In this document: positions 25,914 to 37,401 of the stretch, in pieces
Layout: the number at the start of each line of letters is the position of its first letter
How positions within the stretch are numbered: the first letter of the stretch is position 1
Assembly: GCA_963422645.2 (NCBI GenBank)
Contig: CAXXVO010000009.1
Span: 256,001 to 320,000, forward strand
Length of the DNA: 64,000 nt
Origin: Alphaproteobacteria bacterium
Lineage (GTDB): Bacteria > Pseudomonadota > Alphaproteobacteria > UBA828
Direction: 5' to 3'
Notes under the pieces: generated by a model
Told to the model about the DNA's origin: nothing
Database searches by the model: none
What the model saw: only the letters and a program-made list of their open reading frames with translations
Position numbers and translations under genes: made by a program

Positions 25914-26071
25914 CCCGCTCAGCGCTTGCACCATGGTGCGAGGCACGGCGCGAACCTCCCGTGCCACGATCGTGCCATGCCGTTCTCGAACAAACACACC
26001 GGCGCATGCAGAAGGGGAGCAAGCAGGCGGCAGGCCCTCACCGCGCGCGACCGATCCGGCCCGCGCGCTCG

Positions 26072-26139
26072 CTTATCCCACTTATCCCACTTACATCCCA
26101 CTTATCCCACTTACATCCCACTTATCCCGGGAATCCCAC
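26072..26139. repeat. Tandem repeat of CTTATCCCA / CTTACATCCCA units (6 units plus one degenerate)
   Basis: Units start at 26072, 26081, 26090, 26101, 26110 and 26121. Confidence 0.95.
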
Positions 26140-26252
26140 ATTAAAATTTTGTAACTGCCCAGGTCTGATTCTGCCGAGCACTCGGACGTGATGGATTGAT
26201 GGTTCTGACCAGCCAGGGGTCAGGCGGCGCTTTCCCGGAGCAGCGCAGGATT

Positions 26253-27794
26253 TCAGAAGCGCAATACGGGGATCAGCTGGATTGGATCGGGGTGCGCCAG
26301 GGTTTCGAGGACATTCCAGCGCTGTTTTCGAGCGGTGGCGATGACGGATCGCAGGTTTGCGAAGTCGCGGGCGCCTTGTATCGAGCGGAAGCCGCCTGAG
26401 ATTTTCTGGCGCAGCTTGCCCATTCGGAGGTCGCGCTCGGCCTCGTTGTTGGAGAAGGGGGTTCGCGGATCGGTGAGGAAGCGCAGGCACCCCTCCTTGT
26501 ACTTCTGGAGTCGGAGGGCGAGGTTGTGACCGATGCGGCGCTTTTGTCGTCCGCGCTTTCCGGTCTGGAGCGGTGGCATTTCTTCGTGAGAGGCGATGGC
26601 ACGTTCGAGGATGCGGTCCCAGGCTCGCGAGATGCGGGCCACCAGTGAGGCGGGCACGTCGCGGTCGTTCTTGTGGGCGAAGCGGGCGGCTCTGTTGGCA
26701 CGGATGAGGAGCCGGTGCGTGCTCGTTGCCCAGTCTTCCTTCTCGATCTCGATGAGGGCTTGGAGCTCGCGCAGGTGATGGGCGTTGCAGGCCCCGTGGC
26801 GCACGCCCTCGAGAGCGAAGTAGGTGGCGTAGTCGTCATGGATGACGATGCCGTTGAGCTTCTCGTCGATGTGGCTGCGCCCGGTGGCGACGCGCAGGAT
26901 GGTGAGCAACGGGGTGCACAGCACATGGAGCCAATGGGTCCGGGCGGCGATGCGGATGCCGGTCTCGTCGAGGTGTTTGACTGGGGCTGCGGTGCGGATG
27001 ATCTCCGCGAGGCGATCGAGGAAGCCCTCGAAGCGCCGGGCGGTGCGCCTTCCCATGGCGACGATGGTGGCTGTTGAGAGCTTGACCGCGAAGAGGTCGC
27101 TCATGACCTCGGCGACCCGCTTCTCGGGAATGAACTGAGCGTGCAGCAGGTAGGTCACCCACGCGGTGATGCGCGGCCCGTATTGGACCGGTGCGCTCAC
27201 GCCGTTCGGGAAGACGGCTGTCGTCACGGTGCCGCAGGCAGCGCAGAGGCAACGATGGCCGCGATGTTCGGTGACCTCGAGGGGCTGCGGCTCGGGCACA
27301 TCGAAGACCTGCCGGCAGACGGGGGCTCCGTGACGGTCAGCGTCCGACAGCGGCGCGCCGCAGCCCTCACAGGCGGACGGATCATGATCGACGACATGGT
27401 CGGGCGTCGCGGTCCGCTCCAGGGTAGTTCCCTTGTGGCCCGGCTGGCCGCCACTGGGCCTGTCGGACTTGCCGCGCTGGCTCCGGGTGCGCTTCTCCCG
27501 GTCACCGCTCTTCTTCTTCAGACCGTCGCTGGCCGGCGGCTTGGAGCTGGTGGTGCTGTCGAGCGCGGCGCTGCGCTCGAGTTCGGCGATCCGCTCGCGC
27601 AAGCGGGCGTTCTCCCGCTCCAGCGCGTCGTTCTCCTTGACCAGGGCCGCGCTCAGGCGCAGCAACCCCTGGCCCCATTCCCGAATGGCTTTGACGGCGG
27701 TCATTGCGAAGGATTGTGGGGTGAAAAGGTCCTGCAGGCACGCGAAGGCCTCGTCGTGGGCAGCGAGGTCCTCGTGCCAGCGCGACACTGTCAC
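26253..27794 (-). CDS. tnpC: IS66 DDE transposase TnpC
   Basis: Coiled coil, SSKPPASD, GGQPGHKG, CxxC zinc motifs, HLDETG, HDD, CNAHHLREL and NNEAERDLR; GTG start overlaps the MTase TGA. Confidence 0.95.
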   Translation of the reverse strand: MTVSRWHEDLAAHDEAFACLQDLFTPQSFAMTAVKAIREWGQGLLRLSAALVKENDALERENARLRERIAELERSAALDSTTSSKPPASDGLKKKSGDREKRTRSQRGKSDRPSGGQPGHKGTTLERTATPDHVVDHDPSACEGCGAPLSDADRHGAPVCRQVFDVPEPQPLEVTEHRGHRCLCAACGTVTTAVFPNGVSAPVQYGPRITAWVTYLLHAQFIPEKRVAEVMSDLFAVKLSTATIVAMGRRTARRFEGFLDRLAEIIRTAAPVKHLDETGIRIAARTHWLHVLCTPLLTILRVATGRSHIDEKLNGIVIHDDYATYFALEGVRHGACNAHHLRELQALIEIEKEDWATSTHRLLIRANRAARFAHKNDRDVPASLVARISRAWDRILERAIASHEEMPPLQTGKRGRQKRRIGHNLALRLQKYKEGCLRFLTDPRTPFSNNEAERDLRMGKLRQKISGGFRSIQGARDFANLRSVIATARKQRWNVLETLAHPDPIQLIPVLRF

Positions 27795-28459
27795 GAACCC
27801 TCGTCGGCCTCGACGGCCATGATCGCGGCCAGCACCGCCAGGCGTTCGCCCGCCGGCATGGCCTCGTAGCGCCGGCCCCAGTTGGCCGCCTTGCGCTTGA
27901 TGCACTGGCGCTCGGTGAAGTTCCGGCCGGCGAAGCTCGCCCAGTGCACCCGGTCAGGCGCGAAGTTGAACCACACGACCTCGGTCCGCACCTGGGCCTG
28001 GGTCGTCACCTGCAGCGCCAGCCGGCGCCAGCCCGCCAGCAGCTCGTCATAGAGCGCAGACGGGTGGCCCGAGACCATCACCTGGCAGGGCAGACCCTTG
28101 AGCAGTTCGAGGAGCGCGACGTGGTCGGCCTCCTCGTACTCGAAGCGGTAGCGCTGCGACGAACGCCGGGTCGCGTGCAGATAGGGCGGATCGCTGTAGA
28201 CCAGCTCCGGGCCCAGAAACGGGAACGAGGCCAGGAAGGAATGGGCGCAGCCGTGCACCAACTCCACCGGGTAGTCGCAGCCAAAGGCCTCAAGCGCCCG
28301 CTCGTCGCGGTCGATCCCGATCGAGCGCATGGCCGCAGGCTTGCGCTTCATCAGCGCCCCGCCCCCAAGATGGCTCTCGATATAGACAGAGTGCCGCGGC
28401 ATCAGCGCAATCAGCGCCTGGCTCAGACCGGTCGTCGCCTTCGACCCGAAATACCCCAC
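27791..28459 (-). CDS. Compact Dam-like (D12 class) DNA adenine methyltransferase
   Basis: YFGSK (motif X), YIESHLGGG (motif I), VYSDPPY (motif IV), VMVSG and RTEVVW. Confidence 0.9.
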   Translation of the reverse strand: MGYFGSKATTGLSQALIALMPRHSVYIESHLGGGALMKRKPAAMRSIGIDRDERALEAFGCDYPVELVHGCAHSFLASFPFLGPELVYSDPPYLHATRRSSQRYRFEYEEADHVALLELLKGLPCQVMVSGHPSALYDELLAGWRRLALQVTTQAQVRTEVVWFNFAPDRVHWASFAGRNFTERQCIKRKAANWGRRYEAMPAGERLAVLAAIMAVEADEGS

Positions 28460-28838
28460 CGGCTGCTCCTCTCATGCGAGAGTGCAACCCATAGGCGAGA
28501 TAACCTATACAGTCAAGCGGGGATCAACGACGCGCCGACGGCGAAACGGCACCGACGGCAAGCAACATCAGCACGCACTCAGAACTGGCGGCGGGGTACC
28601 TGGGTAGTTACAAAATTTTCTTGTCTCGTCCCGCGTCGTGTTCCGTCACCGGGTGCTCGTTGCGCGTGCTCGGGCCCGGCGCTACAGTTCTCACTGTCGA
28701 CGCGGCCCTCCGGGCCGAGCGACCGCCCGAACGACGGAACGGTCGGTCCTTGTCGGCGACGGTCGAGGCGCCGTGGAGGTGCGGGTGCGCTCGCTCCAGT
28801 CGGAACCAGCCTCACACACTGCAGGTTGAGGAGGAGGC

Positions 28839-29672
28839 GTGAGCCCCGCGGGGTCCGCGACGCGCGACGTGTGGCATGCAAGTGGCGACCGGCAACCGCG
28901 CCGGTCGGCGACACTCCGGACGCTTGGGCTGGTGTTCGCCAGTCTCCTCGCCTGTTGCTGGGCCGGGCCCGCAGCTGCCGAGCGGGTGATCGTGCTCGCG
29001 GCCGCGAGCACCGCGCACGTGATCGACGCGCTAATCGGGCAGTTCGAGGCGGGGCCTGGCGACAGTGTCGTGGCCTCCTACGCCGGAACCTCAGCACTCG
29101 CGCGCCAGATCGAGAGCGGCGCCCCGGCCGAAATCTTCCTCGCGGCCAATGCGGCGTGGATGGACTACGTGGACGCGCAAGGTCTGATCGAGCCCGGCAG
29201 CCGGCAGGTGCTCGCCGGCAATCGCCTGGTGTTCGTCACCGGTGACGCCAACATGGCGCCCTTCGAACCCTCGGCGGCGCTCGATTTTTCTGCATTGCTG
29301 AGCGGCGGGCGGCTGGCCATCGGCAACCCCGACCATGTACCGGCCGGCATCTACGCGCGCCAGGCGCTGGAAGCGCTGGGCCTCTGGCGCGACGTGCGGA
29401 GCCAGCTTGCGCCGGCGGCCGACGTGCGGGCGGCACTCGCGCTGGTGGCCAGGGGAGAGGCGCCGCTCGGAATCGTCTACGCCACCGATTCCGCCCGCAT
29501 CGAAGGCGTGCATGTGGTGGGAACGATCCCGGCGTCGCTGCATGAGCCCATCGTGTATCCGATGGCCCTCATCGCGGGCCGCGTCTCGCCGCTGGTGACG
29601 CGCTTCTTCGAATTTCTCGCGGGGCCGGAGGGCCGGGCGGCCTTCGCCCGCGCCGGCTTCATCGTCGACTGA
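28839..29672 (+). CDS. modA: Molybdate ABC substrate-binding protein
   Basis: LAAAS, GTSALARQIESGAPA, VPAGIYA and GIVYATD motifs. Confidence 0.95.
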   Translation: MSPAGSATRDVWHASGDRQPRRSATLRTLGLVFASLLACCWAGPAAAERVIVLAAASTAHVIDALIGQFEAGPGDSVVASYAGTSALARQIESGAPAEIFLAANAAWMDYVDAQGLIEPGSRQVLAGNRLVFVTGDANMAPFEPSAALDFSALLSGGRLAIGNPDHVPAGIYARQALEALGLWRDVRSQLAPAADVRAALALVARGEAPLGIVYATDSARIEGVHVVGTIPASLHEPIVYPMALIAGRVSPLVTRFFEFLAGPEGRAAFARAGFIVD

Positions 29673-29684
29673 AAGACCGGGTGG

Positions 29685-30374
29685 ATGGCGCTGACTCCAC
29701 TGGAGGTCGAGGCGATCAGGCTCAGCCTGCGGGTGGCGGGCTGGGCGGTTCTGATCAGCCTGCCTCTCGGCATCGCTGTCGCCTGGCTGCTCGCGCGCTA
29801 TCGCTTCCCCGGCCGAGAGATCCTCAATGGCCTGGTCCACCTGCCGCTGGTGCTGCCGCCGGTGGTGGTGGGCTTCGTGCTGCTGCTGCTGCTCGGCAAG
29901 CGCGGACCGCTCGGCGCCTGGCTCGACGACTGGTTCGGCATCACTCTCGCCTTTACCTGGCAGGGCGCGGCGGTGGCCTCGGCCGTGGTCTCTTTCCCGC
30001 TCATGGTCCGCGCGATCCGGCTCTCGATCGAGGGTATGGACCGGCGGCTGGAGACCGCCGCACGAACGCTGGGCGCCCCGCCGGTCTGGGTGTTCGCGAC
30101 CATCAGCCTGCCGCACATCGCGCCTGGCATTCTGACCGGTGTCATCCTCGCTTTCGCCCGCTGCCTCGGCGAGTTCGGCGCGACCATCACCTTCGTTTCC
30201 AACATTCCCGGAGAGACCCGAACCCTGCCGCTCGCGCTCTACACTTATACCCAGGTGCCGAGCGGCCTGGACGGCGCCTTTCGCCTGATGGTGATCGCCA
30301 TCGTCATCGCCTTTGCCGCACTGATCGGCTCCGAATTTCTGGCGCGCATCGTCAAGCGCCGGCTGGAGGGGTGA
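29685..30374 (+). CDS. modB: Molybdate ABC permease
   Basis: HLPLVLPPVVVG and LGEFGATI motifs. Confidence 0.96.
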   Translation: MALTPLEVEAIRLSLRVAGWAVLISLPLGIAVAWLLARYRFPGREILNGLVHLPLVLPPVVVGFVLLLLLGKRGPLGAWLDDWFGITLAFTWQGAAVASAVVSFPLMVRAIRLSIEGMDRRLETAARTLGAPPVWVFATISLPHIAPGILTGVILAFARCLGEFGATITFVSNIPGETRTLPLALYTYTQVPSGLDGAFRLMVIAIVIAFAALIGSEFLARIVKRRLEG

Positions 30375-31477
30375 TGCTGGCGGTCCAGGCGCGACTCACC
30401 CGGGGCGAATTCACGCTCGATGCATCCTTCGGCGCCGAGGCCGACGGCGTCGTCGCGCTCTTCGGCGCCTCGGGTGCCGGCAAGACCACGCTTGCGGACG
30501 CCATCGCTGGCCTCGTGCGGCCCGAGGCGGGACGGATCGCGCTCGAAGACCGCGTGCTCTTCGATGCGGAGGCCGGGATCGACCTCAAGCCGGAGCGCCG
30601 CCGGATCGGCTACGTGTTTCAGGACGGCCGCCTCTTCCCCCTCCTCAGCGTGCGCCACAACCTGCTCTACGGGCACCGCTTCGCGCCGCGCGACGGGCGT
30701 TATGCGACGCTGGAGAGGATCGTGACGCTGCTCGGCCTGGAGACGCTGCTGCAGCGCCGGCCAGGCACCCTCTCCGGCGGCGAGCGCCAGCGCGTGGCGC
30801 TCGGCCGGGCTCTCATGGCCCAACCGGAGCTCCTGCTCATGGACGAGCCACTGGCCGCGCTCGACGTGCCCCGCAAGGCGCAAGTCATCGACTACATCGA
30901 GCGGCTGCGCGACGAGATCGGCGTGCCCATCGTCTTCGTCAGCCATGCGGTCGACGAGGTGGCGCGGCTCGCGGGAACCATCGTGGTCATGGCCGGCGGC
31001 AGGGTCGCAGCGGCGGGCCCTGCCGCGGAGGTCATGGCCAGACTCGATCTCGACCCGCTGGCAGGGATCGAAGCGGCCGGCGCGGTGCTGGACGCCACCG
31101 TTCAGAGCCACGACGCGGCTTACGGGCTCACCGAGCTCGCGGTACCGGGCGGCACCCTGCGCGTGCCGCGCCTCAGGCTTGCTCCGGGACGCCGCCTCAG
31201 GGTCCGCGTGCGGGCGCGCGACGTCTCGCTGGCGACTGCGGAGCCGCGCGAGACCAGCGTCCTCAACGTCTTCCGCGGCCGGGTTGTCGAGATCGGACCG
31301 CGCCGAGGCGCCTCGGTCGACGTGGCGGTCGACATCGGCGCCCGGCTGACGGCGCGTATCACGGCTCGCTCCGCCGATACACTCGGCCTTGCCCCCGGCA
31401 GCCAAGTCTACGCGCTGGTCAAGAGCGTCGCGGTCGATCCGGCCTCGCTGGTGCAGGCTGAGCAGGACGGCTCCTGA
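30374..31477 (+). CDS. modC: Molybdate ABC ATPase with TOBE domain
   Basis: GASGAGKT, LSGGERQR and C-terminal SVLN..VYALVKSVA; ATG at 30374. Confidence 0.95.
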   Translation: MLAVQARLTRGEFTLDASFGAEADGVVALFGASGAGKTTLADAIAGLVRPEAGRIALEDRVLFDAEAGIDLKPERRRIGYVFQDGRLFPLLSVRHNLLYGHRFAPRDGRYATLERIVTLLGLETLLQRRPGTLSGGERQRVALGRALMAQPELLLMDEPLAALDVPRKAQVIDYIERLRDEIGVPIVFVSHAVDEVARLAGTIVVMAGGRVAAAGPAAEVMARLDLDPLAGIEAAGAVLDATVQSHDAAYGLTELAVPGGTLRVPRLRLAPGRRLRVRVRARDVSLATAEPRETSVLNVFRGRVVEIGPRRGASVDVAVDIGARLTARITARSADTLGLAPGSQVYALVKSVAVDPASLVQAEQDGS

Positions 31478-31808
31478 CCCGTGGGCGCTGGGGACTCGGA
31501 AGCGTCAGCCCCAGGCCTCACCCGCAGCGGGCTCTCGCACCTGGCGTAGGGGGCGGCAGGCAAGGCCAGTTGGAGCTCGCGGGAGGCACCGCTGTCTATG
31601 CCGGTCTGAAAGGAAGCTGTGCCTACGAGACCAGCTGTCTGGCGAACGATCAGGTCGTAACGACCACGGATTGCACCTGGCAGAGCGATTGATTGTCAGG
31701 GGACGAAGCATTCCACTCGTGTCGACGAGGGCGCCTGCGCGCGGGCTTGCGTAGGGCCCGCCAACCTGCAACGCTTCGCCGCGGCTATTCCTTGCAGTGG
31801 AGGTGGCT

Positions 31809-32090
31809 ATGGGCGCGGCAACGCCAACCGTGCTAATCGACAACGAGCGCGTGCGCGTCACCGAGTGGCGCTTCAAGCCCGGCGAGGCGACGGGTTGGCA
31901 CCGGCACGAATACGACTACGTGGTGGTGCCGGTGACGACCGGACACCTCCACCTCAAGGAGCCCGACGGCGAGCGCACGGTCCAAATTGTCCACGGCTCG
32001 CCCTATTACCGGGGTGAAGGAGTCGAGCACGACGTCATCAACCCGAGCGACACCGACGACGTGGTCTTTGTCGAGGTCGAGGTGAAGTAG
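31809..32090 (+). CDS. Cupin-domain protein
   Basis: GWHRHEYDYVVVP...GVEHDV motif. Confidence 0.88.
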   Translation: MGAATPTVLIDNERVRVTEWRFKPGEATGWHRHEYDYVVVPVTTGHLHLKEPDGERTVQIVHGSPYYRGEGVEHDVINPSDTDDVVFVEVEVK

Positions 32091-32118
32091 GGCCGGCCCC
32101 GGCCATCGCGCCGGACCG

Positions 32119-32147
32119 GAGTCAACGAACCGTCACAATTCCGTATT
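32119..32147 (+). promoter_or_regulatory. Pho box (PhoB-binding site) upstream of pstS
   Basis: GAGTCAA-CGAA-CCGTCAC-AATT-CCGTATT: half-sites at 11-bp period resembling CTGTCAT. Confidence 0.7.
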
Positions 32148-32250
32148 ATTTCCATCTTGGTGCGGCGTTAGCGTACGCCTGCCATCCCGGGAGGCCACGC
32201 GTGGGCGTGGCCGTCGCCATCGGGATGCGAGCGAACCCGGAGGACACGCC

Positions 32251-33297
32251 TTGACCAAGTCAACCCTCGCCATCGCGGCAGCGGCAGCTCTCGCGCTGAC
32301 CGCATCAGTGGCGCTGACCAATGCTGCGGAGGCCCGCGATCAGATCAGGATCGTGGGGTCTTCGACCGTGTTTCCCTTCGCCACCGCCGTCGCCGAAGAG
32401 TTCGGCAAGACCACTGGGCACAAGACACCGGTGGTCGAGAGCACGGGCTCGGGCGGCGGGCTCAAGCTCTTCTGCGGCGGTGTAGGTGTCGACCATCCAG
32501 ACGTCACCAACGCCTCGCGCCGGATCAAGACCTCGGAGGTGGAACGATGCGCCGGGAACGGCGTGACCGCCATCACCGAGGTCAAGATCGGTTATGACGG
32601 GATCGTGCTCGCCAACTCCAGGGCGACCGAGCCCTTCTCGATCACCCTGCAGCAGCTCTTCCTCGCGCTGGCGAAGGATGTCCCCTCGGACGGCGGAATA
32701 GTGCCCAATCCCAACCAGACCTGGAGTGAAGTCGACTCGTCGCTGCCTGCGGTCAAGATCGAGGTGCTCGGCCCGCCGCCGACCTCCGGCACGCGGGACG
32801 CCTTCGTCGAGCTCGCGATGGAAGGCGGCTGCAAGACCTTCCCCGACATCAAGGCGCTAAAGAAGCAGGACAAGAATGCCTACAAGTCCATCTGCCACGC
32901 AATCCGCGAGGACGGCGCCTTCGTCGAGGCGGGCGAGAACGACAATCTCATCGTCCAGAAGCTTGACGCCAATCCCAGCGCGCTCGGGATCTTCGGCTAC
33001 AGCTTCCTCGAGCAGAACCGTGACAAGGTTCAGGGCAGCACCATCAATGGCGTCGAGCCGGACTTCGACACCATCGCCGACGGCAGCTATCCGGTCTCCC
33101 GCTCCATGTACTTCTACGTGAAGAAGGCGCATGTGGGCGTGATCCCCGGCATCGACGAGTTCGTCGCGACCTTCACCGACGAAGACGCCTGGGGACCCTA
33201 CGGCTATCTGGCGGACAAGGGGCTTATCCCGCTCCCCGATGCGGAACGTGAGGCGATGCGCACCCAAGCTACCAGCATGGCTCACCTCTCGATGTAA
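32251..33297 (+). CDS. pstS: Phosphate ABC substrate-binding protein PstS
   Basis: IVGSSTVFP, STGSGGG, GPPPTSGTRD and YPVSR motifs. Confidence 0.93.
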   Translation: MTKSTLAIAAAAALALTASVALTNAAEARDQIRIVGSSTVFPFATAVAEEFGKTTGHKTPVVESTGSGGGLKLFCGGVGVDHPDVTNASRRIKTSEVERCAGNGVTAITEVKIGYDGIVLANSRATEPFSITLQQLFLALAKDVPSDGGIVPNPNQTWSEVDSSLPAVKIEVLGPPPTSGTRDAFVELAMEGGCKTFPDIKALKKQDKNAYKSICHAIREDGAFVEAGENDNLIVQKLDANPSALGIFGYSFLEQNRDKVQGSTINGVEPDFDTIADGSYPVSRSMYFYVKKAHVGVIPGIDEFVATFTDEDAWGPYGYLADKGLIPLPDAEREAMRTQATSMAHLSM

Positions 33298-33332
33298 CCG
33301 GGCTCGCCACAAGACCCTGGAGTCGTGCTACA

Positions 33333-33366
33333 GCGGCGCCCGTTCCTCACCGGGAGCGGGCGCCGT
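33333..33366 (+). terminator. Stem-loop after pstS
   Basis: GGCGCCCGTTCC...GGAGCGGGCGCC. Confidence 0.55.
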
Positions 33367-33425
33367 TCTCAACCAGTGCCGCAGGACAATAGCCAACCGC
33401 AGGGGGAGCGACAGGAGCATGCGCG

Positions 33426-34115
33426 ATGACGGATAGCCCGCTCATCCTCGTGATCGAAGACGAACCCTCGCTGACGACCCTGCTCCGTTACAATCTCGAG
33501 AGTCACCGGTTCCGCGTTGCCTCGATTGAGAACGGCGGCGACGCGATGAGCACGATCGCTTCGACCAAGCCCGATCTGGTGCTGCTCGACTGGATGCTGC
33601 CCGGAGTCTCCGGGATCGAGATTTGCCGCAAGATCCGGCGCGACCCCGAGACCCACAACCTGCCGGTCATCCTGCTCACCGCACGCGGCGAGGAAAGCGA
33701 CCGCGTCCGCGGCCTCGACTGTGGCGCCGACGATTATGTGGTCAAGCCCTTCGTGATTTCCGAACTCATCGCTCGCATTGGCGCGGTGCTGCGCCGGGCT
33801 GCGCCGACGAGCGCGGCCCAATCGCTCGCCAGCGGCGACATCACAATGGACCTCGCCAGCTATCGCGTCAGCCGCAGCGGGCGCTCGATCCACCTGGGGC
33901 CGACCGAGTACCGCCTGCTGCGCCATTTCATGGAGCATCCGGGCCGGGTGCTCTCTCGTGACCACCTGCTTGAGGCGGTGTGGGGGCGCGCGGTGCATAT
34001 CGAGCAACACACCGTGGACGTCCACGTTCGCCGTCTGCGCCAGGCGCTTAACGGTGACGGCGAGGTCGACGTGATCCGGACCGTGCGCTCGGCGGGCTAC
34101 GCCTTCTCCGCCTAA
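33426..34115 (+). CDS. phoB: Phosphate regulon response regulator PhoB
   Basis: LLDWMLP, LTARGEE.DRVRGL, LGPTEYRLL and TVDVHVRRLR motifs. Confidence 0.93.
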   Translation: MTDSPLILVIEDEPSLTTLLRYNLESHRFRVASIENGGDAMSTIASTKPDLVLLDWMLPGVSGIEICRKIRRDPETHNLPVILLTARGEESDRVRGLDCGADDYVVKPFVISELIARIGAVLRRAAPTSAAQSLASGDITMDLASYRVSRSGRSIHLGPTEYRLLRHFMEHPGRVLSRDHLLEAVWGRAVHIEQHTVDVHVRRLRQALNGDGEVDVIRTVRSAGYAFSA

Positions 34116-34841
34116 CGCCGCCCCCCTCAGCCGAACTCTGGCACCGTCGCGACCGCGCTCTCGCGCTCGTCGATGGCAGCCTGCCAGCGGGCGATGTTGG
34201 TCCTCGGGGCCAGCAGCGTCTCGCCCTCCGGCGTCATCTTCAGATAGTGAAGGACGGGCAGCACCATATAGTCCGCGACCGATGCCTCGTCGCCGGCGAA
34301 GCAGGTCCGGCCATCCAGTGCTCCCTCGAGCGCGACAAGCGCCTTGTCGGACTTGGGCACGCTGCTCTCCACCAACGCCTCGTCGGGCTCACCGCCCTGC
34401 GCGGGCACGACCAGGCGCTGCAGCACGATGTCGATCGCCGGGCGGTAGAGATACTGGATGAAGACCGACGTCCATTGCCAGCAGAGGGCGTTGGCGAGCG
34501 GGTCGGCCGGCTGCAGGGGCGGCCCGTCGAACGCGTGGTCGATGTAATTGCAGATCGCCAGCGACTCGTACATGCGCACGTCGCCGTGGGTCATGGCCGG
34601 CACCGACCCCCAAGGCTGCATCGCCTTCTGCTCCGGTGACTGGGGTGCGAGCGGATCGAGCTCGTAAGGGACTCCCTTCTCCATACACGCCATGCGGCAG
34701 GTGCGGACATAGGTGCTCAGCGGTGTGCCATGGATAATCGTAACTGCCCAGGTCTGATTCTGCCGAGCACTCGGACGTGATGGATTGATGGTTCTGACCA
34801 GCCAGGGGTCAGGCGGCGCTTTCCCGGAGCAGCGCAGGATT

Positions 34842-36383
34842 TCAGAAGCGCAATACGGGGATCAGCTGGATTGGATCGGGGTGCGCCAGGGTTTCGAGGA
34901 CATTCCAGCGCTGTTTTCGAGCGGTGGCGATGACGGATCGCAGGTTTGCGAAGTCGCGGGCGCCTTGTATCGAGCGGAAGCCGCCTGAGATTTTCTGGCG
35001 CAGCTTGCCCATTCGGAGGTCGCGCTCGGCCTCGTTGTTGGAGAAGGGGGTTCGCGGATCGGTGAGGAAGCGCAGGCACCCCTCCTTGTACTTCTGGAGT
35101 CGGAGGGCGAGGTTGTGACCGATGCGGCGCTTTTGTCGTCCGCGCTTTCCGGTCTGGAGCGGTGGCATTTCTTCGTGAGAGGCGATGGCACGTTCGAGGA
35201 TGCGGTCCCAGGCTCGCGAGATGCGGGCCACCAGTGAGGCGGGCACGTCGCGGTCGTTCTTGTGGGCGAAGCGGGCGGCTCTGTTGGCACGGATGAGGAG
35301 CCGGTGCGTGCTCGTTGCCCAGTCTTCCTTCTCGATCTCGATGAGGGCTTGGAGCTCGCGCAGGTGATGGGCGTTGCAGGCCCCGTGGCGCACGCCCTCG
35401 AGAGCGAAGTAGGTGGCGTAGTCGTCATGGATGACGATGCCGTTGAGCTTCTCGTCGATGTGGCTGCGCCCGGTGGCGACGCGCAGGATGGTGAGCAACG
35501 GGGTGCACAGCACATGGAGCCAATGGGTCCGGGCGGCGATGCGGATGCCGGTCTCGTCGAGGTGTTTGACTGGGGCTGCGGTGCGGATGATCTCCGCGAG
35601 GCGATCGAGGAAGCCCTCGAAGCGCCGGGCGGTGCGCCTTCCCATGGCGACGATGGTGGCTGTTGAGAGCTTGACCGCGAAGAGGTCGCTCATGACCTCG
35701 GCGACCCGCTTCTCGGGAATGAACTGAGCGTGCAGCAGGTAGGTCACCCACGCGGTGATGCGCGGCCCGTATTGGACCGGTGCGCTCACGCCGTTCGGGA
35801 AGACGGCTGTCGTCACGGTGCCGCAGGCAGCGCAGAGGCAACGATGGCCGCGATGTTCGGTGACCTCGAGGGGCTGCGGCTCGGGCACATCGAAGACCTG
35901 CCGGCAGACGGGGGCTCCGTGACGGTCAGCGTCCGACAGCGGCGCGCCGCAGCCCTCACAGGCGGACGGATCATGATCGACGACATGGTCGGGCGTCGCG
36001 GTCCGCTCCAGGGTAGTTCCCTTGTGGCCCGGCTGGCCGCCACTGGGCCTGTCGGACTTGCCGCGCTGGCTCCGGGTGCGCTTCTCCCGGTCACCGCTCT
36101 TCTTCTTCAGACCGTCGCTGGCCGGCGGCTTGGAGCTGGTGGTGCTGTCGAGCGCGGCGCTGCGCTCGAGTTCGGCGATCCGCTCGCGCAAGCGGGCGTT
36201 CTCCCGCTCCAGCGCGTCGTTCTCCTTGACCAGGGCCGCGCTCAGGCGCAGCAACCCCTGGCCCCATTCCCGAATGGCTTTGACGGCGGTCATTGCGAAG
36301 GATTGTGGGGTGAAAAGGTCCTGCAGGCACGCGAAGGCCTCGTCGTGGGCAGCGAGGTCCTCGTGCCAGCGCGACACTGTCAC
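34842..36383 (-). CDS. tnpC: IS66 DDE transposase TnpC
   Basis: Translation identical to copy 1. Confidence 0.95.
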   Translation of the reverse strand: MTVSRWHEDLAAHDEAFACLQDLFTPQSFAMTAVKAIREWGQGLLRLSAALVKENDALERENARLRERIAELERSAALDSTTSSKPPASDGLKKKSGDREKRTRSQRGKSDRPSGGQPGHKGTTLERTATPDHVVDHDPSACEGCGAPLSDADRHGAPVCRQVFDVPEPQPLEVTEHRGHRCLCAACGTVTTAVFPNGVSAPVQYGPRITAWVTYLLHAQFIPEKRVAEVMSDLFAVKLSTATIVAMGRRTARRFEGFLDRLAEIIRTAAPVKHLDETGIRIAARTHWLHVLCTPLLTILRVATGRSHIDEKLNGIVIHDDYATYFALEGVRHGACNAHHLRELQALIEIEKEDWATSTHRLLIRANRAARFAHKNDRDVPASLVARISRAWDRILERAIASHEEMPPLQTGKRGRQKRRIGHNLALRLQKYKEGCLRFLTDPRTPFSNNEAERDLRMGKLRQKISGGFRSIQGARDFANLRSVIATARKQRWNVLETLAHPDPIQLIPVLRF

Positions 36384-37048
36384 GAACCCTCGTCGGCCTC
36401 GACGGCCATGATCGCGGCCAGCACCGCCAGGCGTTCGCCCGCCGGCATGGCCTCGTAGCGCCGGCCCCAGTTGGCCGCCTTGCGCTTGATGCACTGGCGC
36501 TCGGTGAAGTTCCGGCCGGCGAAGCTCGCCCAGTGCACCCGGTCAGGCGCGAAGTTGAACCACACGACCTCGGTCCGCACCTGGGCCTGGGTCGTCACCT
36601 GCAGCGCCAGCCGGCGCCAGCCCGCCAGCAGCTCGTCATAGAGCGCAGACGGGTGGCCCGAGACCATCACCTGGCAGGGCAGACCCTTGAGCAGTTCGAG
36701 GAGCGCGACGTGGTCGGCCTCCTCGTACTCGAAGCGGTAGCGCTGCGACGAACGCCGGGTCGCGTGCAGATAGGGCGGATCGCTGTAGACCAGCTCCGGG
36801 CCCAGAAACGGGAACGAGGCCAGGAAGGAATGGGCGCAGCCGGGCACCAACTCCACCGGGTAGTCGCAGCCAAAGGCCTCAAGCGCCCGCTCGTCGCGGT
36901 CGATCCCGATCGAGCGCATGGCCGCAGGCTTGCGCTTCATCAGCGCCCCGCCCCCAAGATGGCTCTCGATATAGACAGAGTGCCGCGGCATCAGCGCAAT
37001 CAGCGCCTGGCTCAGACCGGTCGTCGCCTTCGACCCGAAATACCCCAC
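36380..37048 (-). CDS. Compact Dam-like DNA adenine methyltransferase (H-to-P variant)
   Basis: Same as copy 1 except VELVPGC instead of VELVHGC. Confidence 0.9.
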   Translation of the reverse strand: MGYFGSKATTGLSQALIALMPRHSVYIESHLGGGALMKRKPAAMRSIGIDRDERALEAFGCDYPVELVPGCAHSFLASFPFLGPELVYSDPPYLHATRRSSQRYRFEYEEADHVALLELLKGLPCQVMVSGHPSALYDELLAGWRRLALQVTTQAQVRTEVVWFNFAPDRVHWASFAGRNFTERQCIKRKAANWGRRYEAMPAGERLAVLAAIMAVEADEGS

Positions 37049-37401
37049 CGGCTGCTCCTCTCATGCGAGAGTGCAACCCATAGGCGAGAGAACCTATACA
37101 GTCAAGCGGGGATCAACGACGCGCCGACGGCGAAACGGCACCGACGGCAAGCAACATCAGCACGCACTCAGAACTGGCGGCGGGGTACCTGGGTAGTTAC
37201 GGATAATCAGTGTCGCCATCGTTCGCTCTCCCACTCCGATCGGGTCGGCAGGGCCCTCCCCCGGCCGCGCGCGCCTATCTTGCATATCCCGCTCGGGGTT
37301 GCACCGGGTCCGCACCGTGAACGGGTCGTCGGTCGAGTTGTTCGCGCGCAGGCCGCTGACTATGCTCGCGGCAGCAGGATGGCCCAGCGCGGAGACGCGG
37401 C

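Follow-up and report, generated by a model that had tools for sequence, protein, structure and literature searches.

A Upf31-like methyltransferase-fold gene precedes the transposase of an IS66 element and of unrelated insertion sequences as part of a putative autorepressor cassette

We analyzed an insertion sequence (IS) of the IS66 family in a 64,000-nucleotide stretch of the genome of an Alphaproteobacteria bacterium (lineage UBA828; assembly GCA_963422645.2, contig CAXXVO010000009.1, positions 256,001 to 320,000), which we call the window. The element occupies 2461 bp on the minus strand (window 26151-28611) and encodes a protein of 222 amino acids (aa) with a methyltransferase fold ahead of its transposase gene, tnpC. 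The same small gene was found with its promoter in front of several unrelated transposases in other genomes, and it resembles upf31 of IncP-1 plasmids. On balance, we consider it probable that promoter and gene form a mobile promoter-operator-autorepressor cassette of plasmid origin, which gates the coupled transposase by binding-based autorepression. The DNA binding, the repression and the effect on transposition would hold by analogy with experiments on a plasmid protein that is 45% identical to the small protein.

According to ISfinder descriptions, IS66 elements as a rule duplicate 8 bp of their target and have terminal inverted repeats (TIRs) that start with GTAA. The window element is IS66 by its transposase, its ends and its duplication, as an earlier note on this DNA had proposed. 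Its two TIRs (GTAACTGCCCAGGT against the reverse complement of GTAACTACCCAGGT) agree at 13 of 14 positions, and both an 8-bp duplication and ends starting GTAA are features in common with the family, the ISBst12 group included. The tnpC product passed the NCBIfam IS66 equivalog NF033517 (1.5e-84, 284 bits against a cut-off of 180) and contained the domains DUF6444 (PF20042, 1.8e-10) and DDE_Tnp_IS66 (PF03050, 3e-38, 132 bits against a cut-off of 23.1), with a weak zf-IS66 match (PF13005, 7.9e-4) below cut-off. The open reading frame (ORF) listing stretches tnpC to an upstream GTG (550 aa); we preferred the 513-aa start because the homologues are 511-513 aa long and because a sister family in the same genome starts at the same overlap. 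This GTG, at 27794, is preceded by GAGG and overlaps the TGA of the first ORF, in agreement with the translational coupling described in the note. Read in the coding direction, the element consists of a TIR, a 152-nt leader, the 222-aa ORF, tnpC, a 102-nt trailer and the second TIR, and only two genes between the ends, the Upf31-like gene and tnpC, had family support; the note, too, had listed only two.

With these two genes the element fits neither the tnpA-tnpB-tnpC form of IS66 nor the single-gene form. In canonical IS66 elements tnpA and tnpB lie upstream of tnpC, whereas here tnpC is preceded by a gene unrelated to either, and PF05717 and PF01527 (tnpA/tnpB) were not found in the two proteins of the element. 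In the ISBst12 group tnpC is the sole gene, whereas the window element has a second conserved and coupled gene inside its ends. The nearest tnpC relatives (55-60% identity) were of the DUF6444 type and often lay on contigs too short to hold extra genes; for this reason the Upf31-like gene seems to have joined a single-gene form instead of replacing other genes, and the statement of the note that it stands in place of tnpA and tnpB is doubtful. Descent of the window element from a one-gene IS66 form fits these data, although they do not prove it.

The host genome (5.9 Mb in 23 contigs) was searched by BLAST with the element and by tblastn with the small protein. BLAST detected 15 full-length copies, which were 91-100% identical. 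Of these, 11 were flanked by perfect 8-bp duplications, no two of them alike, and the remaining four had unlike flanks, which is consistent with later rearrangement. Since 15 copies with 11 distinct perfect duplications are far beyond chance, the unit transposes as a whole: the window element is a real, highly active insertion sequence that moves, methylase-like gene included, as one unit. The second copy in the window, which the note had reported together with its different duplication, is one of these (Table 1). The tblastn search gave 91 matches, about 28 of which belonged to this family and about 55 to a sister family (e.g., C10:224110-224769; the window starts at C10:256001). The sister family has the same architecture and is about twice as numerous, and it is 87% identical to the window family in the small protein, 76% in tnpC and 82% in DNA. 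Wherever a downstream partner was found at the matches in this genome, it was an IS66 tnpC. A search of plasmids for DNA near-identical to the element gave no match. Assembled contigs from RNA libraries (four runs of four studies) contained 90-99% relatives of both genes, and one contig of 253 bases spanned the junction of the two genes; being assembled contigs, they do not show transcript ends and may include DNA carry-over. The RNA shares were 0.05-0.13, and we drew no habitat from them.

A scan of one genome per species identified at least 424 confirmed loci of the small gene, of which we kept the best 80 (68-95% identical to the window protein). These 80 lay in assemblies of Alpha- and Gammaproteobacteria, Binatia, Tectimicrobiota, Chloroflexota, Planctomycetota, Thermodesulfobacteriota and Bacillota, often with many loci per genome, and in 80/80 a DDE transposase gene or its remnant followed downstream on the same strand. 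The pairing is not, then, the lineage-specific accident that the note had allowed for. The partner belonged to the IS66 lineage of the window at 27 loci (tnpC 74-95% identical), to a second IS66 lineage, about 30% identical to the window tnpC, at 26, and to a third (IS66c), with an IS66_C domain, at two; 20 loci had an ISAs1-like transposase (DDE_Tnp_1_assoc plus DDE_Tnp_1), four an IS701-like transposase (DDE_5) of two kinds, and one an IS1634-like transposase (DDE_Tnp_1). In multi-copy genomes the repeated unit was exactly leader, small gene and transposase, with ends proper to the transposase type. The ISAs1-type units had CAGCAGTTCTCATTTTG ends and 9-bp duplications (8/8 copies in one genome, 5/7 in another), those of the second IS66 lineage had GTAACTACTC(A/G)CCCCC ends and duplications of about 8 bp that were visible in most, not all, copies, and a pair of 2790-bp IS701-like units had inverted ends of their own. 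Altogether, the small gene was found upstream of at least four unrelated transposase types, on the same strand and mostly overlapping or closely spaced. The GTGA overlap of the window element recurred in the sister family, in L039 (an element of the IS66a type) and in the ISAs1-type elements L060 and L061, and the gap between the two genes was 3-10 nt in the second IS66 lineage and 74 nt in an IS701-like element. That one cassette also serves other transposase families had been missed in the note. A Sphingobium plasmid homologue lying next to ISSp1 (IS1380) was considered as a further element of this kind and rejected as a plain insertion, because ISSp1 is found by itself in many plasmids and the homologue is also found without it.

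Comparison of L039 with the IS701-like element L049 revealed a single shared segment of DNA, 761 bp at 83% identity, which runs from 73 nt upstream of the small gene, promoter included, to 18 nt past its stop codon. In a maximum-likelihood tree of 47 distinct IS-borne proteins the partner labels needed seven changes, the minimum being six. The IS701-linked pair was nested in the IS66 clade of the window (100/99), and the ISAs1-, IS66c-, IS1634- and other IS701-linked proteins were nested among second-lineage IS66 proteins. With seven plasmid homologues as the outgroup, the IS-borne proteins formed one separate clade (100/99), the unresolved base of which was mostly second-lineage IS66; given the polytomy at this base and the length of the outgroup branches, the order of captures is no more than suggested. 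Judged from these sequence comparisons, the promoter and small gene move between IS families as a cassette that has been acquired repeatedly. Synonymous divergence between the two sister families of the host genome was 0.32 for the small gene against 0.63 for tnpC, and this halving hints at exchange. The ratio of nonsynonymous to synonymous substitution rates (dN/dS) was 0.22-0.32 for the small gene across comparisons and 0.24 for tnpC; the small gene is under purifying selection. We therefore regard it as very improbable that the gene is a neutral passenger, trapped between the ends of one IS and hitch-hiking with no role in transposition. Insertion sequences with passenger genes exist, and the ISSp1 case illustrates how adjacency can arise by plain insertion, but the selection on the gene, its repeated acquisition and the recurrence of one arrangement with four or more unrelated kinds of transposase, whose elements each have ends of their own, all speak against such a passenger.

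We compared seven element leaders representing four partner types and found that all share TTGACx, a 17-bp spacer and TATGG(T/G). In each of them the -35 is followed, two bases on, by an inverted repeat, CATAG(R)-N8-(Y)CTATG, which reaches into the -10 with its right arm; position -11, in the -10 hexamer, is the A of CTATGG. The family consensus of this candidate operator was taken as CATAG-N10-CTATG, and the strict pattern (TTGACx-17-TATGGx with CATAG...CTATG) was present in 68/80 related loci. A promoter scan called the site as the sole plus-strand promoter-like match in the whole elements L061 and L057 (10/12 positions). In the host genome, 79 promoter-context matches stood against 81 palindrome-like matches; a host regulon is unlikely because the palindrome is almost confined to these elements. 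The note had suggested that the protein regulates the promoter or the ends of its own element. Regulation of the promoter fits the conserved palindrome found there, whereas a search of the element's ends for the CATAG/CTATG half-site found none, and regulation of the ends was dropped; a further CTATG, at element position 560, is part of the coding region.

Two further observations concern the promoter region. In the leader between the -10 and the start codon (28460-28487, minus strand), CTCTC...GAGAG can pair and overlaps the GAGAGGAG ribosome-binding stretch, and similar CTCTC/GAGAG-type pairing is visible in L039; translational control by such pairing is possible. The host genome also contains a second very abundant mobile element, with 118 matches to its 74-bp subterminal unit, sometimes in tandem (example L108, C21:60300-63400), and this element encodes a protein with helix-turn-helix and Transposase_29 (PF21804) domains in two overlapping frames. 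It was inserted exactly in one operator arm in at least 10 IS copies, splitting the -35 from the -10 (e.g., C9:125980-126128, C8:779561-779634, C13:104604-104677 and C10:211062-211135). Its flanks are often CTAT/CTAG-like, and the operator half-site may simply be a good target for it.

The note had called the small protein a Dam-like methyltransferase, and as regards the fold this description stood. The protein has the motifs YFGSK (GxK), ESHLGGG (HLGGG), IGID and DPPY, followed by a basic two-helix tail at the C-terminus. An AlphaFold model built on a 24-row alignment had a mean pLDDT of 76, and the structures that Foldseek placed nearest to it were E. coli Dam, DpnM and T4 Dam (E ~5e-7, TMq 0.49-0.56), which have motif I and DPPY in common with the small protein. 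As regards the Dam family the description did not hold. The TIGR00571 (Dam) match covered residues 85-154 only and scored 27.1 bits, the cut-off being 114.85, and no Pfam model, PF02086 included, matched the 222-aa protein at E <=0.01. Residues 19-42 aligned with DpnM 31-55 and residues 82-146 with DpnM 186-255, and DpnM residues 55-186 faced only about 40 residues of the small protein. On this alignment about 90 residues of the Dam-type target-recognition region are absent, which accounts for TM-scores of only about 0.5. By curated thresholds or domain content, the small protein has the Dam fold only and lies outside the Dam family. Clearer matches were obtained with Type II methylase models (PADLOC PDLC03244, 5.9e-22; phrog_56, 4.6e-20), and there was a weak MTase_II match as well. 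A profile search of PDB sequences returned DpnM together with TPR-repeat matches, which we rejected as spurious products of a repetitive chain. A homodimer prediction with two copies and alignment A1 gave scores of 0.19 and 0.24 against a mark of 0.42 and was used neither for nor against a dimer; HLGGG and DPPY were invariant in the same alignment.

The family is large: the 90% collection contains 2873 of its proteins, mostly about 220 aa long, and there are 8507 clusters at E <=0.001 (1142 at <=1e-30) in the 50% collection, where the IS-borne proteins fall into essentially one cluster. Some relatives of 270-390 aa (P0137, P0146, P0166 and similar) have their match split in two by an insert near residue 65; this is the position of the Dam recognition domain, and the family therefore includes forms with and without the insert.

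The small protein was also compared with plasmids. A tblastn search against 72,556 plasmids matched 198 records, all at less than 60% identity and 134/198 of them conjugative, in which the gene is annotated as 'DNA adenine methylase' or, in IncP-1 records, as 'upf31.0 putative site-specific DNA-methyltransferase'. The IncP-1 upf31.0-type protein (L103) aligned over its full length with the window protein (45% identity) with every motif kept, and other plasmid records were 50-53% identical without large gaps, the C-terminal tail included. In the three plasmid contexts examined, no transposase was found beside the gene. A repeat of the form CAT(A/C)G-N10-C(T/G)ATG was present upstream of 5/7 plasmid homologues, three of them CATAG-like, and in the IncP-1 record and a Pseudomonas megaplasmid record CATCG-N10-CGATG lay between TTGACA and the -10. 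The upf31.7 gene of RP4 is a different gene. Upf31 and the small protein are alike in length (~222-225 aa), in the Dam-like fold, in the basic C-terminal helical tail and in a 10-bp-spaced inverted repeat between -35 and -10, and we assign the small protein to the Upf31 family by sequence and promoter design. The two differ in that Upf31 is encoded by a plasmid backbone gene without a transposase, has CATCG rather than CATAG as its half-site, and comes with additional groups of repeats on the plasmid and with a predicted contact with KorB.

Experiments on Upf31 of the IncP-1beta plasmid pBP136 have been described by Elg et al. (Mol Biol Evol 2025, PMC11997246), and in the part of that paper drawn on here Upf31 neither restored GATC methylation nor gave a modification signal by SMRT (single-molecule real-time) sequencing in methylase-free E. 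coli. It did repress its own promoter, from 4.76 to 0.09 XylE units; this repression needed the C-terminal domain, and inverted CAGCATCG repeats were proposed as the likely operator (PMC11997246). Autorepression without detectable methylation is known only for a pBP136/R751 hybrid Upf31, and the authors keep open the methylation of some target (PMC11997246). In the same part of the paper, upf31 is presented as almost confined to IncP-1beta, and insertion sequences go unmentioned (PMC11997246). Since we had noted the IS palindrome before these results, the Upf31 data are independent experimental support for reading it as an operator.

The Upf31 experiments also bear on the idea that the small protein is an orphan methyltransferase, carried for the benefit of the element or its vector, that acts at many sites and either protects DNA against restriction on entry or changes the methylome of the host, as the note had offered in its second and third options. 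Such a role would suit the matches to Type II methylase models, the relatives on conjugative plasmids and the spread of the elements across phyla, and a protein without a recognition domain could have relaxed specificity. However, the only tested relative gave no genome-wide SMRT signal and no GATC methylation (PMC11997246), and an orphan methyltransferase would leave unexplained both the conserved palindrome in its own promoter and the strict place of the gene before, and coupled to, the transposase in 80/80 loci. We consider this explanation quite improbable.

In the mechanism that we favor, that of binding-based autorepression, the protein would bind CATAG-N10-CTATG between the -35 and the -10 and repress the only promoter-like site of the element. 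Because tnpC starts inside the stop codon of the small gene, transposase would be made only from the gated transcript. Where copies are already present in a cell, the repressor made by all of them would act in trans and hold each copy low, and in a newly entered cell without repressor both genes would be expressed in a burst. Several of our findings weigh against this mechanism. The argument spans 45% identity and a different half-site (CATAG against CATCG), and 2/7 plasmid homologues had no such repeat upstream. Among the 80 related loci, 12 depart from the strict pattern as near variants, and in at least one of them (L025) the right arm is gone. The window copy itself has TATAG as its left half-site and was not called by the promoter scan, its TTGACT/TATGGG matching 8/12 positions and its -10 having no final T. 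The two families together amount to about 85 copies of ~2.4 kb in a 5.9-Mb genome, which argues that the copy-number brake, if there is one, is leaky. The IS1634-like, second IS701-like and IS66c partners were single or unmatched loci for which no matching second copy was seen, and the gene is only presumed to lie within the ends of those elements. Finally, in an alignment of 86 rows at 37-72% identity, residues D90 (86/86), P91 (86/86), P92 (85/86), Y93 (83/86) and G32 (83/86) were near-invariant, and a pure repressor would not obviously need a near-invariant DPPY together with residues that bind S-adenosylmethionine (SAM). The near-invariant motifs would mean either that the active site is used for operator recognition or that a few specific adenines are methylated, so that operator-specific methylation may occur.

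In the second case, the element would encode its own methylation switch in the manner of IS10: an active N6-adenine methyltransferase would have a few operator half-sites as its targets, methylation of the -11 A of CTATGG would silence the promoter, and replication would leave one daughter copy transiently unmethylated and cause a pulse of transposase. The near-invariance of the catalytic and cofactor motifs throughout the family, the purifying selection on the gene and the overlap of the right half-site with the -10 in every partner type would agree with such a switch. The published SMRT test sought motifs in methylase-free E. coli with an expression vector (PMC11997246); a long or rare site would have few or no targets in that host and its methylation could be missed, and the authors of that work themselves leave room for some methylation. 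We nevertheless judge the switch rather unlikely, given that no methylation by Upf31 was detected, that binding alone explains how the plasmid protein repressed in trans (PMC11997246), and that the Dam recognition insert is absent.

Binding-based autorepression can be extended into a more specific account, which we offer tentatively, as a possibility more than an expectation. Here the cassette (~0.76 kb) would have been captured once by an IS66-type element and passed to at least four other DDE lineages in at least seven phylum-level groups. The operator would be read with the methyltransferase active site, using SAM and base flipping with or without methyl transfer, and zygotic induction would be followed by trans-repression.

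The features of the window are listed in Table 1. The two copies in the window have the same orientation, lie 6.1 kb apart (28612-34739 between them) and bracket host genes including the ORF at 28839-29672. They are independent insertions, as each has its own duplication, and they could act as a composite unit or as a substrate for deletion. A short tandem array of CCCACTTAT/CCCACTTACAT-like units (window 26070-26135) adjoins the insertion site of the first copy. Elsewhere in the host genome, a distant IS66 tnpC (65% DNA identity) without a match to the small gene lies within a few hundred bases of three element copies (C11:34694-35990, C8:42366-43662 and C3:12066-13362), which may reflect a preferred target or a duplicated block. 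The copies on C11 and C15 have one flank in common and differ in the other, a pattern that suggests recombination between copies.

Table 1. Positions of the element features in the window
Feature	Position	Strand	Basis
Target-site duplication AAAATTTT, copy at the tnpC end	26143..26150		Read in sequence
TIR at the tnpC end, GTAACTGCCCAGGT inward	26151..26164	-	Identical in 15/15 full-length copies
tnpC, IS66-family DDE transposase, 513 aa	26253..27794	-	GTG start at 27794; Pfam/NCBIfam
GTGA stop/start overlap joining both genes	27791..27794	-	Sequence; recurs in related elements
Upf31-like gene, 222-aa methyltransferase-fold protein	27791..28459	-	ORF, motifs, fold, homology
Candidate promoter TTGACT-17 bp-TATGGG	28488..28516	-	-35 at 28511-28516; -10 at 28488-28493
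Candidate operator, inverted repeat TATAGG-N8-CCTATG	28490..28509	-	In promoter spacer, overlaps -10
TIR at the promoter end, GTAACTACCCAGGT inward	28598..28611	-	Read in sequence
Target-site duplication AAAATTTT, second copy	28612..28619		Read in sequence
Second full element copy, 99.9% identical, flanked by GGATAATC	34740..37200	-	Genome BLAST (C10:290740-293200)

Element-encoded repressors and methylation-sensitive transposase promoters are both known ideas. At the IS10 and IS50 promoters the methylase is the host Dam and the site is GATC. The cassette is like these in that a site for a protein with an adenine-methylase fold overlaps the -10 of the transposase promoter, an overlap that could tie expression to replication or to arrival in a new cell; it differs in that the element itself encodes the protein, CATAG-N10-CTATG takes the place of GATC, and methylation is putative. 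InsA of IS1, OrfA of the IS3 family and TnpR of Tn3 are small element-encoded DNA-binding proteins that lower transposase expression in trans, and the logic that we propose, with the repressor made ahead of the transposase, is alike. Those proteins have helix-turn-helix or resolvase folds and serve one family each, whereas the present protein has a methyltransferase fold, would come from plasmids and belongs to a cassette shared among unrelated IS families. In our literature searches we met no element of the IS66, ISAs1 or IS701 type whose first gene is methylase-like or Upf31-like, and neither a plasmid-type autorepressor cassette with a methyltransferase fold in an IS nor the sharing of one among unrelated transposase families; ISfinder, TnCentral and REBASE were outside their scope, and individual elements may possibly have been catalogued there.

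Descriptions of insertion sequences usually treat each family, and the regulation proper to it, by itself. In the present case a single regulatory module, apparently of plasmid origin, is common to unrelated transposase families, and the cassette is more conserved (68-95% identity) than the transposases that it precedes (~30% identical or unrelated). This suggests that the control of transposase expression can itself be a commodity that is exchanged horizontally. The 'DNA adenine methylase' label that such genes carry in many metagenome-assembled genomes probably misleads surveys of methylomes and of defense systems. The poorly understood Upf31 family, in turn, gains thousands of natural replicates with one clear operator each, and these make it testable whether a methyltransferase fold works here by repressing at a specific sequence, by forming an epigenetic latch, or in both ways.

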